A stretch of 8,601 bases of DNA from a virus (Duplodnaviria; Heunggongvirae; Uroviricota; Caudoviricetes): IMG/VR virus record IMGVR_UViG_2700989489_000020; one strand, written 5' to 3'. A program made the position numbers and the translations under genes. How positions within the stretch are numbered: the stretch's first letter is position 1; each line of letters opens with the position of its first letter. This document shows positions 1,789-7,941 of the stretch, piece after piece. The notes below the pieces were generated by a model. The model was not told the origin of the DNA and searched no databases. It saw only the letters and a program-made list of their open reading frames with translations.

Positions 1789-1944
1789 TTACTCCTCAGG
1801 TTCGTAAGCTGTGAAGACAGCGACCTCCGTCTGGCCGGTTCGGATTCGTACCTCGCAGAGGTCTTTCCTCGTTACCAGTGCCGTCACTATGACGGTTAAA
1901 CAGATGACGATCAGGGCGATTAACATCGCCTTTTGCTGCTTCAT
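1789..1944 (-). CDS. hokD: Hok/Gef family type I toxin (51 aa), HokD/RelF-like
   Basis: Translation from the internal Met of ORF 1789..2001: MKQQKAMLIALIVICLTVIVTALVTRKDLCEVRIRTGQTEVAVFTAYEPEE, matching my recollection of HokD. AAGGAG 9 nt upstream of that ATG. Single TM segment plus conserved Cys. Confidence 0.85.
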   Translation of the reverse strand: MKQQKAMLIALIVICLTVIVTALVTRKDLCEVRIRTGQTEVAVFTAYEPEE

Positions 1945-2136
1945 AGCCTGCTTCTCCTTGACCTTTCGGTCCGTAAGAGGCAATCTATATGTGACGAGCA
2001 TATAGGGGCCTCACTTCGATTTATAGTCGGGTGGGGCTTTTATCTATCTGCCGTTGGTGTTCATGCCCGAGGCAGATAGCCTCAAGCACCCGCAGCAATC
2101 CTACTTAACTCTGCCGTTACAGCAAACCGTTTTCGC

Positions 2137-2279: not shown

Positions 2280-3038
2280 TCAAGTGCCTTTCCTGGTCCA
2301 GCCATATTTTTTGAATGCAGGCGCCGCTTCATCGGTTTGTAGCCATTCTGCAAATCGACGGGTTTCATCATTTGCATCCTGACGTACTGTAATGTTCATA
2401 TCACGCCATATCACGTAGTCTGGCGCTATTTCCACGACATCACCAATTTCTGGATTACTGGCTGCCCAGTCAGCCCAGGTTATCCAGACATCTGCTCCAG
2501 GCTGATTCTCAAGAGCCTTACGTGCAGTTCCGCTATTGGGCGCATATAAAATAATATTTTTTCGGATTGCGGCGACAGTTTCTATATTCCCTTTACGTCC
2601 GGCAATATCTTCCCAGACGCCAGTGCCTGATGTATTACTGGTACCACCACCATCATTAACAATTACGCCAATCCCAGGTCTGGTCAGGTCGTCAATACTC
2701 CGGATATTTTTAGGATTACCTTTCTTTACCAGTAAAATACTTTTTCGCAGATAAAGAGGCTGAATATCTTTTTCACTGAAGCTGTCTTTATGGTCCCGAA
2801 TGATAGCCAGAGCAGATTGTTCTGATGCGCCAAACAAGATATCTGCATTTTTTTTGGCATCTTCATTCCATTTGTTCTGTGGGCCGTAATGAACGTTCAC
2901 TATAATACCTGTTTTTTCGGCATAAAGTTTGGCTGCATCAAGCAAGGCTGTATGCGGGCCACCAGGACCATACAGATTGATATCAGCATAAGCAGCAGAA
3001 GACAGGAATATTAAAAAACCTGCCATTATGTTCCTCAT
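2280..3038 (-). CDS. Secreted periplasmic substrate-binding protein (ModA-like solute-binding fold), orphan cargo gene
   Basis: ORF track 252 aa. AAGGAG 7 nt upstream of the ATG at 3038. Sec-type signal peptide MRNIMAGFLIFLSSAAYA then DINLYG. C-terminal ...FKKYGWTRKGT resembles the ModA C-terminus from memory. Visibly AT-rich relative to neighbours. Confidence 0.75.
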   Translation of the reverse strand: MRNIMAGFLIFLSSAAYADINLYGPGGPHTALLDAAKLYAEKTGIIVNVHYGPQNKWNEDAKKNADILFGASEQSALAIIRDHKDSFSEKDIQPLYLRKSILLVKKGNPKNIRSIDDLTRPGIGVIVNDGGGTSNTSGTGVWEDIAGRKGNIETVAAIRKNIILYAPNSGTARKALENQPGADVWITWADWAASNPEIGDVVEIAPDYVIWRDMNITVRQDANDETRRFAEWLQTDEAAPAFKKYGWTRKGT

Positions 3039-4664: not shown

Positions 4665-5330
4665 TCAAACAAAACCAGCCGCTTTCCGGCGTTCATATTC
4701 CTGTTTCAGCAACTCAATTGGCGTTGGCCCCGACGGGCGTTTGGGGGCCGCCAGTTGTCGCCGGACTGGCGGAACGCTCAGGCCGTTACTAACATGCTTT
4801 GCCCATTTCGTCAGTTGCCGTTCTGCAAGCCGTTTTAATTCCCCTTCGGTCATCTGGCGCTCAATCCCCTTTGAACGCATCTCGAGGCAAATGTGATACA
4901 GCACAGGCTGAGACCACGGGTACTTATCACTTCCGTCGTATCGCCAGGACTCATTGCGCCAGCGGCGGTACTCCTCCATCACAGCATCCACCGTCAGACC
5001 GAATGGATTGGCTCCGCTTTTCGAAATCAGTGCCACAAACTCAGCCAGGTCCGGAGGCCATGTTTCACCCGCCCGGCAGCGGTCCATGCACTGGCGGCAG
5101 ACCTGCCGGATTTGCTGCTCAGTCATCGCGCCAATCTGTGCAATCCAGAGCTTCGAAGGTGCGGCCCCGTTCTTCTGGATCCAGCGGTTCGAATAAACCA
5201 CCCCCATGAGTTCCCACAGCTTCCAGGCCGTTTCCGTCGCTGATAAATCCGTTTTCACGTTCCCACTGCTCACGTGCTGCCCGAATTTCCTGAACTGCCC
5301 GTGATGCGGTGCCACCTGGTGCTGCTGCAT
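4665..5330 (-). CDS. Lambda P-like replication protein (DnaB helicase loader); true start uncertain (5330, 5204 or 5126)
   Basis: C-terminal half aligns by eye with lambda P (YPWSQPVLYHICLEMRSKG...GELKRLAERQ versus lambda YPWKSNAHYWLVTNLYQNMRAN...AELRRKAADE). Internal ATG at 5126 overlaps the O-like stop as ATGACTGA. Confidence 0.8.
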   Translation of the reverse strand: MQQHQVAPHHGQFRKFGQHVSSGNVKTDLSATETAWKLWELMGVVYSNRWIQKNGAAPSKLWIAQIGAMTEQQIRQVCRQCMDRCRAGETWPPDLAEFVALISKSGANPFGLTVDAVMEEYRRWRNESWRYDGSDKYPWSQPVLYHICLEMRSKGIERQMTEGELKRLAERQLTKWAKHVSNGLSVPPVRRQLAAPKRPSGPTPIELLKQEYERRKAAGFV

Positions 5331-6159
5331 GGTTTACCCCTTTGCTGACTGGTTTAACCTGCGCCCTGACGTGATTTACGTGACGGGCGAATTTCTGCTC
5401 CCACTGAATCTGCGTAAACACTTTCCCCTCCGCTGCCCAGTAGTCCCGGAAGGCGGCAAGTTCAGCAGGTGTAAATTCTGTCTCCGGCAAAGCCATCCCC
5501 CACAACGCAGCCCGTCGTCGAAAATCCCGTGACGGATACCAGCTATCGCTCATCGGGAATTTTCCGATGGGTTCGCTCAGGCCATACAGGAATACAGGGG
5601 GGGCTGCCTGTAACGACAAAACTTCCTGCTCACTGGTCGGAGCACTCTCGCGTGCGTTATGTGTGGGGTTTAGATCTTTGGGTTCCTTTGGGTTCCGTGA
5701 TCCGTTTTTGGGTGTCTTTGATGGAAAATTTGGGTGTCTTTGGTTATTTTCCATGCAGCTAAGAGTTCTGTTTTTGGGTCTGTTTTGTGCTGAAACATAA
5801 CCATTTTCGGTACTGTTTTTATTAACAGCACCAATTTTACCCACCTTTAAAGACTCCCGTTTTTGGGTGTATTCAGGCTCGGCAACACTTTCTTCTACAC
5901 CGATAAGTCGGTACACCACAATTTGCTTTGTTCTGCCTTTTCTCTCACCGGTATCAACAATTAACCCAATCTCCATCAGGTGTCGTAAGCTGTCCTGCAC
6001 AGTCTTTTTGTTCAGTTCCGTTACTTCTGCCAGTGCAGATACAGACGGGTATGCACACAAATCGGCACCGCACATATCAGCAAGCCAGGTCAATACTGAC
6101 TTACTGGATGAACTGCCGGTTTTCACCTTTTTAGCCCATCGTAGTGCATCGATACTCAT
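5119..6159 (-). CDS. Replication initiator (O-like): N-terminal winged-helix DNA-binding domain, low-complexity linker, DnaT-like C-terminal domain
   Basis: ORF track 5119..6234; start placed at the internal Met MSIDALRWAKK (ATG 6157-6159, AGGGG about 8 nt upstream). Linker region coincides with the iteron array. Domain assignment from recalled family features. Confidence 0.8.
   Translation of the reverse strand: MSIDALRWAKKVKTGSSSSKSVLTWLADMCGADLCAYPSVSALAEVTELNKKTVQDSLRHLMEIGLIVDTGERKGRTKQIVVYRLIGVEESVAEPEYTQKRESLKVGKIGAVNKNSTENGYVSAQNRPKNRTLSCMENNQRHPNFPSKTPKNGSRNPKEPKDLNPTHNARESAPTSEQEVLSLQAAPPVFLYGLSEPIGKFPMSDSWYPSRDFRRRAALWGMALPETEFTPAELAAFRDYWAAEGKVFTQIQWEQKFARHVNHVRAQVKPVSKGVNHAAAPGGTASRAVQEIRAAREQWERENGFISDGNGLEAVGTHGGGLFEPLDPEERGRTFEALDCTDWRDD
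5676..5871. repeat. Iteron array and AT-rich stretch: candidate phage origin of replication inside the initiator gene
   Basis: Six direct copies of core TTTGGGT: CTTTGGGTTCC at 5676-5686 and 5686-5696; TTTGGGTGTCTTTG at 5707-5720 and 5729-5742; TTTGGGTCTG at 5773-5782; TTTGGGTGTA at 5862-5871. AT-rich 5783-5858 lies between the last two. Confidence 0.6.
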
Positions 6160-6682
6160 ACGAACCCCTGGCAGACATTTGTTTATCTGCAAAGTAATAT
6201 TGGTATTGCTGACGATACGCGTGCTTGAAAGCAATAGCTTTTTCTATAAGCTCGTCAGTCTCACGTTCCACAACAACTGGATCCGCAAAAAGCAGCCCGG
6301 ACTCCACCACATCGCCATATTCTTTGTTTAACCCGGCGATCATGTACGTAATGCTTTTTCCGTCAGTAATTTCACAATACAATCTGAAATCGCTGATCCG
6401 GATAGCCTCCATAATTGCCGGAATCAGCGCCGTGAATTTGTCACGCTTATCTCTGGTGTCGATAGCTTTCCAGCGTTCGAATATCTTCACCCGGTTAACG
6501 CCCAGCGCCCGTTGATCAACCTCGCCATCATTAAACGTGACGCGTTGAACATCGATGTTCGGGCGTTCTTTCAGAGCCCAGAATGCTTCCGTGATTAATA
6601 TCGTCGCCTGCTCCTGTGTCATTCCTGGTCGGCATACCCAGGTATCCAGAGCCTCACAAACCTGTTCAGTGGTGATTTTCAT
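6131..6682 (-). CDS. YdaT-like protein in the cII position (183 aa)
   Basis: ORF track. Sits between the Cro-like gene and the initiator; overlaps the Cro-like stop by 17 nt and the initiator start by 29 nt. YdaT call rests on synteny with Rac racR-ydaS-ydaT and a loosely remembered motif. Confidence 0.55.
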   Translation of the reverse strand: MKITTEQVCEALDTWVCRPGMTQEQATILITEAFWALKERPNIDVQRVTFNDGEVDQRALGVNRVKIFERWKAIDTRDKRDKFTALIPAIMEAIRISDFRLYCEITDGKSITYMIAGLNKEYGDVVESGLLFADPVVVERETDELIEKAIAFKHAYRQQYQYYFADKQMSARGSYEYRCTTMG

Positions 6683-6893
6683 TGTTCAACCGCCCCGCCC
6701 GCTTTGCCTTACGATATTCGTCATAAACTTTGGGGTCGTACTGAAGTTCCCCGCCGGATGCCTCTTGCAGGCGCATCGCGCGACCTTCAGGAACCAGTTC
6801 CCCCCATGCAGCAACGCTTGCCAGCCTAACTCCTGCGACATTGGCAAGCTTTGTTTTGCTGCCAAAAAACGCTATAGCATCAATTTTCAACAT
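6666..6893 (-). CDS. Cro-like HTH regulator (P22 Cro / YdaS family)
   Basis: 75 aa. AAGGGG 6 nt upstream of the ATG. Core FFGSKTKLANVAGVRLASVAAWGELVPEGRAMRLQEASGGEL resembles P22 Cro from memory. Divergent from the repressor. Confidence 0.75.
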   Translation of the reverse strand: MLKIDAIAFFGSKTKLANVAGVRLASVAAWGELVPEGRAMRLQEASGGELQYDPKVYDEYRKAKRAGRLNNENHH

Positions 6894-6969
6894 ATCGAAC
6901 CCCTTAGATTTTCCTAAGGAAACTAGATCGTAGAGAAACCTAAGTCAAGAAAAATTAGAATTACCTAAT
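6894..6969. promoter_or_regulatory. Divergent control region with three 16-bp dyad operators and two back-to-back promoters
   Basis: Operators of form YTTAG-N6-CTAAR: CTTAGATTTTCCTAAG (6903-6918), CGTAGAGAAACCTAAG (6929-6944), ATTAGAATTACCTAAT (6954-6969), spaced 25-26 bp. Minus-strand promoter: TTGACT (plus 6943-6948), 17 bp, TAGTTT. Plus-strand -10 TAGAAT (6956-6961) ends 8 nt before the repressor ATG, with a poor -35. Confidence 0.6.
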
Positions 6970-7377
6970 ATGAAAAACGAAACCTTCGGTGCTCGCCTCT
7001 TATACAGGCGAAAAAAATTAAAACTGTCTCAGGCCGCATTAGGTAAGCTGGTCAAAGTGGCTCACGTAACAATTTCTCAATGGGAAAGAGATGAAACACA
7101 GCCAGCGGGGAAGAGATTATTCGCACTGAGCCAGGCGCTTCAGTGCTCGCCGACTTGGCTTCTTTTTGGAGATGAAGATAAGCAACCAGGCGAACCGATC
7201 CCAGATAATCAGCCAGTCAATCTGACAGAAGATCAAAAAGAGTTGCTTCAACTGTTCGACGCACTGCCTGAGTCAGAGCAAAAGGCTCTGTTGTCAGAGA
7301 TGCGTGCTCGAGTTGAGAATTTCAACAAACTTTTTGAAGAACTACTCAAAGCTCGCAAAAGAAGCGCAAATAAATAA
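6970..7377 (+). CDS. CI-like prophage repressor, XRE-family HTH, no S24 peptidase domain
   Basis: 135 aa. HTH in LSQAALGKLVKVAHVTISQWERDE. Too short for a LexA-like autocleavage domain and no such motif seen. No Shine-Dalgarno; apparently leaderless. Confidence 0.85.
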   Translation: MKNETFGARLLYRRKKLKLSQAALGKLVKVAHVTISQWERDETQPAGKRLFALSQALQCSPTWLLFGDEDKQPGEPIPDNQPVNLTEDQKELLQLFDALPESEQKALLSEMRARVENFNKLFEELLKARKRSANK

Positions 7378-7451: not shown

Positions 7452-7505
7452 CTTAGGTTTTTCTACACAAAAAGCTTGACCATAACTCTTAGGCTATTCT
7501 AAATT
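7452..7505 (+). promoter_or_regulatory. Putative PL-like promoter with two operator-like sites
   Basis: CTTAGGTTTTTCTACA (7452-7467) and CTTAGGCTATTCTAAA (7488-7503) share the half-site and N6 spacing of the 6903-6969 operators. -35 TTGACC (7476-7481), 18-bp spacer, -10 TAAATT (7500-7505). Confidence 0.45.
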
Positions 7506-7584
7506 CTACTCATCAAGACACCGCACGGTGTTCTCAGCAAACAGTTCCGCTACCCGGCGTTAAGGGGAAGCAGAGGATTTCTCA

Positions 7585-7941
7585 GTGGGCGAAGTCAAAC
7601 ATCAGAATGGAAGGCGTCCAGGGATCAGCAAAGAAACAGCGATGGCGCTTTATATTGATATCAGCGCCATTGCCGGACAGGTAAGAGTTATCAGAGCGGT
7701 AACTAAGCGGTATGCGCCTTTACTTCAGAAAGTCTCTGGTGAGTGCACCGAAGATATTGTCAACGATTTCGTCATCGAACTGCGAGGACTCATCTTCAGT
7801 TACAAGGTGACCACAATTTTTGCAGATGGCTCCCGCGAAACTGTCAGAGCCCTGCGGCTTAAAGGATGTGTCAAAGACTTAGCCACCACATTCTGGGCAA
7901 GAAAACTTGATTGTATTCATAACCAATTTCCTCTCGAGTAA
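7585..7941 (+). CDS. Hypothetical protein, first gene of the left operon (118 aa from GTG; alternative ATG at 7642)
   Basis: ORF track. GAGGA 7 nt upstream of the GTG at 7585. No recognisable family; no N-like arginine-rich motif. Confidence 0.5.
   Translation: MGEVKHQNGRRPGISKETAMALYIDISAIAGQVRVIRAVTKRYAPLLQKVSGECTEDIVNDFVIELRGLIFSYKVTTIFADGSRETVRALRLKGCVKDLATTFWARKLDCIHNQFPLE

Follow-up and report, generated by a model that had tools for sequence, protein, structure and literature searches.

A probable DicA/DicC-type immunity switch in the ompW-integrated lambdoid prophage of Escherichia coli O157:H7 and related lineages

The DicA/DicC pair of the Qin prophage in Escherichia coli K-12 forms a bistable switch, in which DicA has no cleavage site and is relieved by the antirepressor Rem (PMC10448788). 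Three operator sequences are found in the gap between dicA and dicC, and three more in the gap between dicA and dicBp (Ragunathan et al. 2023, PMC10448788); the Oc/Om/Oa layout, together with a second operator set at dicBp, was described in 1986-88 (Bejar et al., as relayed in PMC10448788). The operator Oc, TTGTTAGTCATAACTAACAA, comprises a TTAG-N6-CTAA core extended to arms of 7 bp (Yun et al. 2012, PMC3441716). DicA binds Oc, and in an in vivo assay this binding was lost on a single A-to-C change in the CTAA arm; Om and Oa are sequence-defined operators, neither of which bound DicA alone in the same kind of assay (PMC3441716). When DicA sits at Oc, dicC is repressed, and this occupancy is also required for transcription of dicA, whose promoter is not recognisable by sequence. 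The combination of CnuK9E and H-NS antagonises DicA at its operator (PMC3441716).

The same pair of genes has been manipulated in E. coli O157:H7, where overproduction of DicC lowered dicA and raised dicB expression, overproduction of DicA lowered dicB, and dicA could not be deleted (Pan et al. 2019, PMC6915034).

We analysed a stretch of 8,601 bp of viral DNA (hereafter the window), in which a first-pass annotation had recognised a lambda-style switch with three operators between divergent repressor and Cro-like genes. That architecture is borne out by our comparisons, and the locus is very probably the immunity (lysis/lysogeny) switch of a lambdoid prophage, belonging to the DicA/DicC type and related to P22 immC but with a short repressor. 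The accompanying proposal that the operators represent a distinct, uncharacterised motif was mostly wrong, as their core is that of the K-12 DicA operator Oc, and the three-operator layout has, according to the later literature that cites it, been known since 1986-88. By sequence, the window operators are instead a common variant that departs from K-12 by one or two bases at each half-site edge, and the window probably holds a separate immunity allele of a known module.

The locus and its control regions

A 1-kb region of the locus is 100% identical to the chromosomes of E. coli O157:H7, O55:H7, O145:H28 and O103, and 99.9% identical to records of the 'PPompW' prophage, in which the genes are annotated dicA and dicC. 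Of the 5426 complete genomes searched, 751 carry at least 80% of this 1-kb query. A prophage of the lambdoid kind, adjoining ompW, contains the locus in the O157 genome, with ydfC and dicB downstream; the window represents this prophage, integrated at ompW in E. coli O157/O55/O145/O103. The primers for DicA, for DicC and for the dicC deletion arm published in PMC6915034 match the window sequence, except that the deletion arm is one base off, at a position where it equals a variant found in related loci. It follows that the switch logic has already been tested on this allele in O157:H7.

The two switch genes and the gap between them are as follows.

6666-6893, minus strand: Cro-like gene, dicC homologue, 75 aa (Pfam P22_Cro, E 3e-13)
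6894-6969, no strand: divergent control region of 76 bp, OR-like and equivalent to PdicAC, between the CAT of the 75-aa ORF and the ATG of the 135-aa ORF
6970-7377, plus strand: repressor gene, dicA homologue, 135 aa (Pfam HTH_3, E 4e-14)

The Cro-like protein is 83% identical to K-12 DicC and in a comparison with the PDB matches the structure of P22 Cro (1rzs, E 6e-7). The repressor is 63% identical over 131 aa to DicA of K-12 Qin, and its residues 2-69 match structures of the P22 C2 N-domain (1adr/2r1j, E 1e-21); for both proteins these P22 structures are the top hits in the PDB. Judged by sequence, then, both switch genes are homologues of dicA and dicC. A Peptidase_S24 (LexA-like) domain is absent from the 135-aa repressor in the Pfam search, which returned only HTH families. 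Beyond the Cro-like gene lie a YdaT-like gene and then O-like and P-like replication genes.

Three dyads of 16 bp lie in the 76-bp gap.

6903-6918, no strand: operator site 1, equivalent of Oc, CTTAGATTTTCCTAAG; arms CTTAG and CTAAG around ATTTTC, perfect core
6929-6944, no strand: operator site 2, equivalent of Om, CGTAGAGAAACCTAAG; arms CGTAG and CTAAG around AGAAAC, with one core mismatch in the left arm (GTAG)
6954-6969, no strand: operator site 3, equivalent of Oa, ATTAGAATTACCTAAT; arms ATTAG and CTAAT of 5 bp around AATTAC, perfect core, adjoining the repressor ATG

These are the three dyads that had been noted earlier, and the spacing of 25-26 bp given for them agrees with the start-to-start distances, which are 26 bp from site 1 to site 2 and 25 bp from site 2 to site 3. 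The consensus proposed for them, YTTAG-N6-CTAAR, does not hold and fits site 1 only: in site 2 the left arm carries a G where the consensus has T, and the outermost bases of site 3 are A and T rather than Y and R. What the sites have in common is the core TTAG-N6-CTAA, with one mismatch in site 2. Site 1 is the best of the three, and its dyad extends to a perfect 18 bp (CCTTAG...CTAAGG, 6902-6919).

A pattern search for this core, allowing at most one mismatch, gave five matches in the 8,601-bp window, all of which fall in the two non-coding stretches that flank the repressor gene. For the window as a whole, five matches against 2.4 expected is not significant alone, and the gap is A+T-rich (51 of 76 bases), but the clustering of the matches is extremely improbable. 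With 76 nt of equal composition, three or more matches were obtained in only 2 mononucleotide shuffles out of 200,000 and in 20 first-order Markov simulations out of 200,000, and two perfect matches in 1 of 200,000 simulated sequences. By chance, the three intergenic matches would be expected with a probability of roughly 1e-5 to 1e-4. Nor was the pattern simply picked after the fact, since its core is that of the published K-12 DicA operator Oc (PMC3441716). An inverted-repeat search over 6850-7010 reported none, the 5-bp arms being below its 6-nt seed, and Rfam gave no match in or near the control region.

Both promoters of the gap were assigned by homology to K-12 and P22 and from the pattern of conservation; neither reaches threshold in a consensus promoter scan.

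6943-6948, minus strand: predicted -35 (TTGACT) of the Cro-like promoter, read from the sequence; the identical hexamer stands in the same place in K-12 and is kept across types
6920-6925, minus strand: predicted -10 (TAGTTT) of the Cro-like promoter, at 17-nt spacing from TTGACT, in the position of the K-12 dicC -10 (TATCTT)
6900-6905, minus strand: AAGGGG, likewise read from the sequence and predicted to be the Shine-Dalgarno element for the Cro-like gene, at 6 nt from its ATG (6893)
6956-6961, plus strand: TAGAAT within site 3, predicted as the -10 for the repressor gene, 8 nt ahead of its ATG (6970)

The K-12 dicC -10 was placed from the 5' end of dicC mRNA mapped by RACE, and Oc overlaps it (PMC3441716). 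In sequences of the window's own group (W type, described below) the -10 of the Cro-like promoter is conserved as TAnTnT, and every type has TAGAAT or TAGCAT as the repressor -10. Transcription from the Cro-like promoter is predicted to begin near 6913, within site 1, which would cover about -5 to +11 of this promoter, while site 2 occupies the promoter spacer and touches the -35, and site 3 overlaps the repressor -10. The promoter overlaps are thus essentially those described in the first-pass annotation. The same annotation had suggested a weak repressor -35 and a leaderless repressor mRNA. Only a poor -35 can be read from the sequence, and there is no Shine-Dalgarno sequence upstream of the ATG at 6970. 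K-12 dicA is among the few leaderless mRNAs of E. coli (PMC4681348, Fig. 2A; PMC8794815), and this homology makes a leaderless repressor mRNA plausible for the window allele.

A second control region lies downstream of the repressor gene and contains the other two core matches.

7452-7467, no strand: distal operator of the PL/dicBp-like region, CTTAGGTTTTTCTACA; core at 7453-7466
7476-7505, plus strand: PL/dicBp-like promoter, TTGACC-18-TAAATT, a match in the promoter scan
7488-7503, no strand: proximal operator, CTTAGGCTATTCTAAA; perfect core at 7489-7502, in the spacer and -10 of the PL/dicBp-like promoter

The TTGACC hexamer occurs at the equivalent place in K-12 dicBp and in P22 PL, and in the identical O157 locus the promoter leads to ydfC and dicB. 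We also scanned the 17-kb O157 locus for additional operators of the W type, for example before an antirepressor gene, and found none beyond the five sites. One extra operator match in that locus lies inside a coding region and is likely due to chance.

Conservation and an allele-specific arm base

To place these sites among their relatives, we drew on species-representative genomes and on IMG/VR for 247 loci of the DicA family, which yielded 86 distinct upstream regions. The layout of the control region is kept in all 86; an alignment of homologous control regions for conserved half-sites had been proposed as a check in the first-pass annotation. For the window's own group, the W type, 29 distinct in-register sequences were available for a comparison of mean column entropy, which is 0.14 bits in the arms, 0.24 bits in the N6 centres and 0.67 bits between sites, and rises to 1.21 bits in the hypervariable Cro-side leader just outside site 1. 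The arms of site 1 are near-invariant in these 29 sequences. The K-type loci show no variation in the Oc arms, while their N6 occurs in at least seven versions. In the second control region, a C stands 5' of TTAG at the distal operator in 27 of 27 distinct W-type sequences, and in the same number of sequences the CTTAG of the proximal operator is invariant beside a hypervariable promoter spacer. This is the conservation pattern expected from selection on a dimeric DNA-binding site.

The picture is less simple for the other two sites in the gap. Site 2, including its left arm GTAG, is kept within the W type, but other DicA types keep only its right half, the left half being missing in the R, Citrobacter and Yersinia types; site 3 is almost identical in the W, R, Citrobacter and Yersinia types. 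The conservation of site 3 is confounded by the overlapping repressor -10 and start codon, and that of the right half of site 2 by the -35 of the Cro promoter. Because of these overlaps, and of the missing left half of site 2, the operator status of sites 2 and 3 rests more on homology to P22 than on their conservation.

The groups differ in the outer bases of the arms. W-type arms read (T/C)CCTTAG at site 1, and the two operators downstream have CTTAG. In the same places, K-12, the R type (a common type in E. coli, E. ruysiae and E. albertii), Citrobacter, Yersinia and one further lineage have TTGTTAG and GTTAG, respectively; at the position of the proximal operator, the K and R types read GTTAG. 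The window itself has CCCTTAG/CTAAGGA at site 1, and the K-12 arms TTGTTAG/CTAACAA are not found there. Immediately 5' of TTAG, W-type loci carry C in 57 of 58 site 1 arms and in 54 of 54 arms on the PL side, and loci whose repressor has TQR in helix 2 carry G in 107 of 108 and in 135 of 135, respectively. The split between C and G follows helix 2 of the repressor (L-SQA/SQS-AL in the W type versus TQR) and not the recognition helix, whose sequence (VAHVTISQWERDETQP) the W and R types have in common. The change is symmetric, occurring in both arms, and lies beside hypervariable flanks. It may trace to a single ancestral event or to very few, so the number of independent observations behind the association with helix 2 would be small.

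These data bear on the strongest of the alternatives, which extends the first-pass annotation's own version: an immunity specificity apart from those of K-12 Qin, P22, lambda and 434, with no cross-recognition. We give this a little less than an even chance. The exchange of C for G next to TTAG, made symmetrically beside variable flanks and with one further lineage in agreement, speaks for a distinct specificity, although it may stem from one ancestral event, and the core, including the CTAA adenine that K-12 DicA needs, is common to K-12 Oc. W- and R-type prophages also share one genome, IMG 2671180710 (loci L014 and L212; read by eye from locus tables), as would suit separate specificities, but their repressors have identical recognition helices and their Cro-like proteins are nearly identical. 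The P22 half-sites (AAG-N4-CTT) also stand 2 bp closer together.

Taking these points together, it is plausible that the specificity of the W-type repressor is distinct from that of the K-12-like groups. A sharper form of the proposal, which we put forward only tentatively, is that the W group (SQA/SQS; CCTTAG-N6-CTAAGG) constitutes an immunity class apart from the TQR class (TGTTAG-N6-CTAACA), set by one symmetric base pair bordering the TTAG core, which would be read by helix 2 or by an N-terminal arm of the repressor and not by its recognition helix, with Cro remaining cross-reactive. If this is true, co-resident EHEC prophages could each stay under the control of their own repressor and yet have anti-repression by Cro in common.

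Proposed operation of the switch and remaining alternatives

Our preferred reading remains that of a DicA/DicC-type immunity switch, and its operation can be outlined as follows. The sites, their clustering, their conservation and the homologies come from the present analysis, and the regulation by DicA and DicC from the literature on K-12 and on the window allele. The 135-aa DicA-like repressor, presumably as a dimer, would bind dyads of 16-20 bp. Site 1, which is the best dyad and lies just downstream of the Cro-like -10 and over the start point, would when occupied shut off the dicC-ydaT-replication operon and, by analogy with K-12, also stimulate the weak repressor promoter. The resulting repressor transcript is predicted to start at the ATG or no more than about 3 nt from it and to be effectively leaderless. 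The same repressor, bound to the two downstream dyads at the promoter 7476-7505, would silence the ydf-dicF-dicB operon. Since the repressor has no LexA-like cleavage domain, its inactivation would probably be by an antirepressor, after which Cro-like DicC would be made. DicC would then bind this same region in turn, its most plausible first target being site 3, and turn off repressor synthesis, giving bistability.

Within this outline, the assignment of proteins to sites 2 and 3 and the sequence of their binding are inferred. As isolated Om and Oa of K-12 did not bind DicA, sites 2 and 3 may be weak, cooperative-only or Cro-specific. A more restrictive alternative is that only site 1 and the operator at 7488-7503 work as repressor operators, sites 2 and 3 being either inherited P22-like remnants, maintained through their overlap with promoter elements and the start codon, or sites for Cro only. 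We consider this unlikely. K-12 DicA did bind Oc and neither Om nor Oa alone (PMC3441716), but cooperative binding escapes assays of isolated sites. The left half of site 2 is missing in the R, Citrobacter and Yersinia types, yet within the W type its GTAG arm is kept. Site 3 has none of the type-specific CC arms, is near-identical across types whose site 1 arms differ, and is overlapped at the start of its N6 by the -10 TAGAAT; however, even the K type, with another N6 and another -10 (TAGCAT), retains TTAG and CTAA at this site, and OR3 of P22, at the same position, is annotated as an operator of the C2 repressor.

The idea that the dyads are chance palindromes, or targets of the YdaT-like CII analogue or of H-NS/Cnu, has a negligible probability, for although the gap is A+T-rich, the excess over the whole window is small and CnuK9E with H-NS does antagonise operator binding by K-12 DicA (PMC3441716), all matches cluster around the repressor gene, their arms are kept across Enterobacterales while the flanks diverge, and they are homologous to the DicA-bound operator Oc; the clustering simulations and the conservation effectively refute chance palindromes in particular.

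The preferred reading, a DicA/DicC switch of known type, carries little weight for basic biology, as this switch has been known in K-12 since the 1980s and was revisited in 2012 and 2023. Its value lies in annotation: the control sites of a prophage present in many EHEC-lineage genomes can be placed to the base, including those of the promoter that controls dicF and dicB, which inhibit cell division. The arm-base difference is possibly a new point; the outer arm positions (CC here, TG in K-12) alone are allele-specific, and they may mark a separate immunity class. The difference between C and G in the arms provides a testable hypothesis for how cross-repression is avoided or allowed among co-resident prophages.

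Comparison with K-12 Qin, P22, lambda and HannyBb

The nearest likeness is to K-12 Qin. Both loci have a homologous 135-aa repressor and Cro-like protein, three core sites about 25 bp apart, a TTGACT -35 for the Cro-like promoter, a repressor gene without a Shine-Dalgarno sequence, and a second operator pair on a downstream TTGACC promoter leading to ydfC and dicB. In K-12 (locus L002) the cores of Oc, Om and Oa lie at 2369-2382, 2394-2407 and 2419-2432, and the dicA ATG is at 2435. The spacing is therefore 25/25 in K-12 and 26/25 in the window (outer spacing 50 and 51 bp), the centre of the first site is 59.5 nt from the repressor ATG in both, and Oa ends 2 nt before the ATG compared with 1 nt for the core of site 3. 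The differences lie in the outer arms of both control regions, with (T/C)CCTTAG in the window against TTGTTAG in K-12, and in the repressor, where helix 2 is SQAALGK here and TQRSLAK in K-12 DicA and three residues of the recognition helix differ (AHVTIS here, SHVSVS in K-12). The middle site is the better dyad in the window (GTAG...CTAA versus TTAA...CATA). Finally, the Cro-like operon is intact here, with its YdaT-like, O-like and P-like genes, whereas only ydfX and ydfW follow dicC in K-12 Qin.

The immC region of Salmonella phage P22 also has three operators between divergent genes, with OR3 adjoining the c2 ATG. The centres of P22 OR1-3 lie 57.5, 34.5 and 9.5 nt from the c2 ATG, and those of the window sites 59.5, 33.5 and 8.5 nt from the repressor ATG. 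The annotated 5' end of the PRM transcript of P22 is 4 nt before the c2 ATG, giving a very short leader. The N-domain of the window repressor resembles that of C2, the Cro-like protein resembles P22 Cro, and P22 PL has a TTGACC -35 followed by an operator, as in the window. The P22 operators, in contrast, are 18 bp long with AAG-N4-CTT, the half-sites of the window (TAG-N6-CTA) being 2 bp further apart. P22 C2 has 216 aa, and the C-terminal 65 aa of the 135-aa window repressor are unrelated to it, the S24 self-cleavage domain being absent here; the phage collection annotates repressors homologous to C2 as members of the LexA family.

Lambda OR offers a more distant parallel, in that it has divergent repressor and Cro promoters, three dyad operators common to both promoters and a further set of operators at the early leftward promoter. 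The lambda cI transcript from PRM is leaderless, and the PRM -35 is weak. The lambda operators are 17 bp long, unrelated in sequence to the window sites and about 10 bp further from the repressor start, with the OR centres near -19, -42 and -66 from the PRM start. Given this difference in promoter geometry, the mechanism of activation through contact of OR2-bound repressor with sigma is not simply transferable. A sequence search found no lambda CI or Cro among the homologues, the best matches being P22 C2, P22 Cro and phage 21-type repressors, and by such comparison the lambda and window proteins have in common only the helix-turn-helix class. Membership of P22 immunity proper was rejected on the operators and on the S24 domain, and membership of lambda immunity on the operators and on protein homology. 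Induction also differs, as it proceeds by RecA-stimulated cleavage in lambda, while K-12 DicA is relieved by Rem (PMC10448788).

Other regions with short, DicA-like repressors are found, for example, in Escherichia phage HannyBb and in phages of the mEp460 type. HannyBb has a divergent Cro-like gene, three dyads of which the last lies by the ATG, and dicBp-like operators that precede the same conserved leader, all as in the window. Its half-sites (TTGAG/CTCAA) and its recognition helix (SGSSISLWES) are both unlike those of the window. HannyBb thus keeps the architecture with other half-sites, which indicates that specificity swapping is normal in the DicA-type family.

DicA-type prophages within and beyond the O157 lineage

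Some genomes carry two copies of the window's own repressor/operator type, as exemplified by loci L043 and L047 in IMG genome 2869924733, and the 1-kb control-region query matches two to four places per O157-lineage chromosome. DicA-type prophages that would apparently be homo-immune thus share a genome in such cases. The record for 'Stenotrophomonas phage vB_SmeS_BUCT708' (OM816834.1; locus L257) also contains a DicA-type control region of the kind typical of enterobacteria (TGTTAG...CTAACA, TTAGAATTATCTAACT-ATG), which is unexpected given the recorded Stenotrophomonas host. This oddity may reflect a wrong host assignment or a recent transfer.

Replication, operon and cargo genes

Two genes of the rightward operon region are relevant here:
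5119-6234 (-), intact O-like/DnaT-domain replication gene, 371 aa
6131-6682, YdaT-like (CII-analogue) gene, overlapping the end of the Cro-like gene at 6666-6682

In O157:H7 strain PV15-279 (L001 5208-7560), the replication gene is split by an IS1203 insertion. The window, where this gene is intact, therefore derives either from a strain or from a copy of the prophage that lacks the insertion element. The 17-nt overlap between the YdaT-like and Cro-like genes suggests that the two could be translationally coupled in the rightward operon.

Two further loci were annotated:
1789-2091 (-), hok/sok type I toxin-antitoxin, combining an ORF of the Hok family (RefSeq name hokD) with a match to the Rfam sok family
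2280-3038 (-), periplasmic-binding-protein-like gene, 252 aa (RefSeq: AcfC-family adhesin Paa)

The hok/sok pair lies within the prophage, and its sok antitoxin match covers 1942-2091 with 104 bits. The Paa gene is virulence-associated cargo lying between hokD and the replication region, and the O157 record has a frameshifted fimbrial gene remnant annotated beside it.

A conserved leader after the dicBp/PL-like promoter

Just 3' of the dicBp/PL-like promoter lies one further element:
7517-7556 (2944-2985 in the K-12 sequence, L002), conserved leader segment GACACCGCACGGTGTTCTCAGCAAACAGTTCCGCTACC

This leader is kept across all immunity types, being found in all loci of the window, K-12 Qin and E. 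coli/E. ruysiae/E. albertii groups that hold the anchor motif, whereas the operators upstream of it differ between types. The overall fold of window 7512-7600 is no more stable than shuffled sequences (z -0.38). The leader begins with a hairpin of a 6-bp stem and a 4-nt loop (ACACCG CACG CGGUGU), and it may act as a nutL/boxB-like site or as a leader element of another kind.
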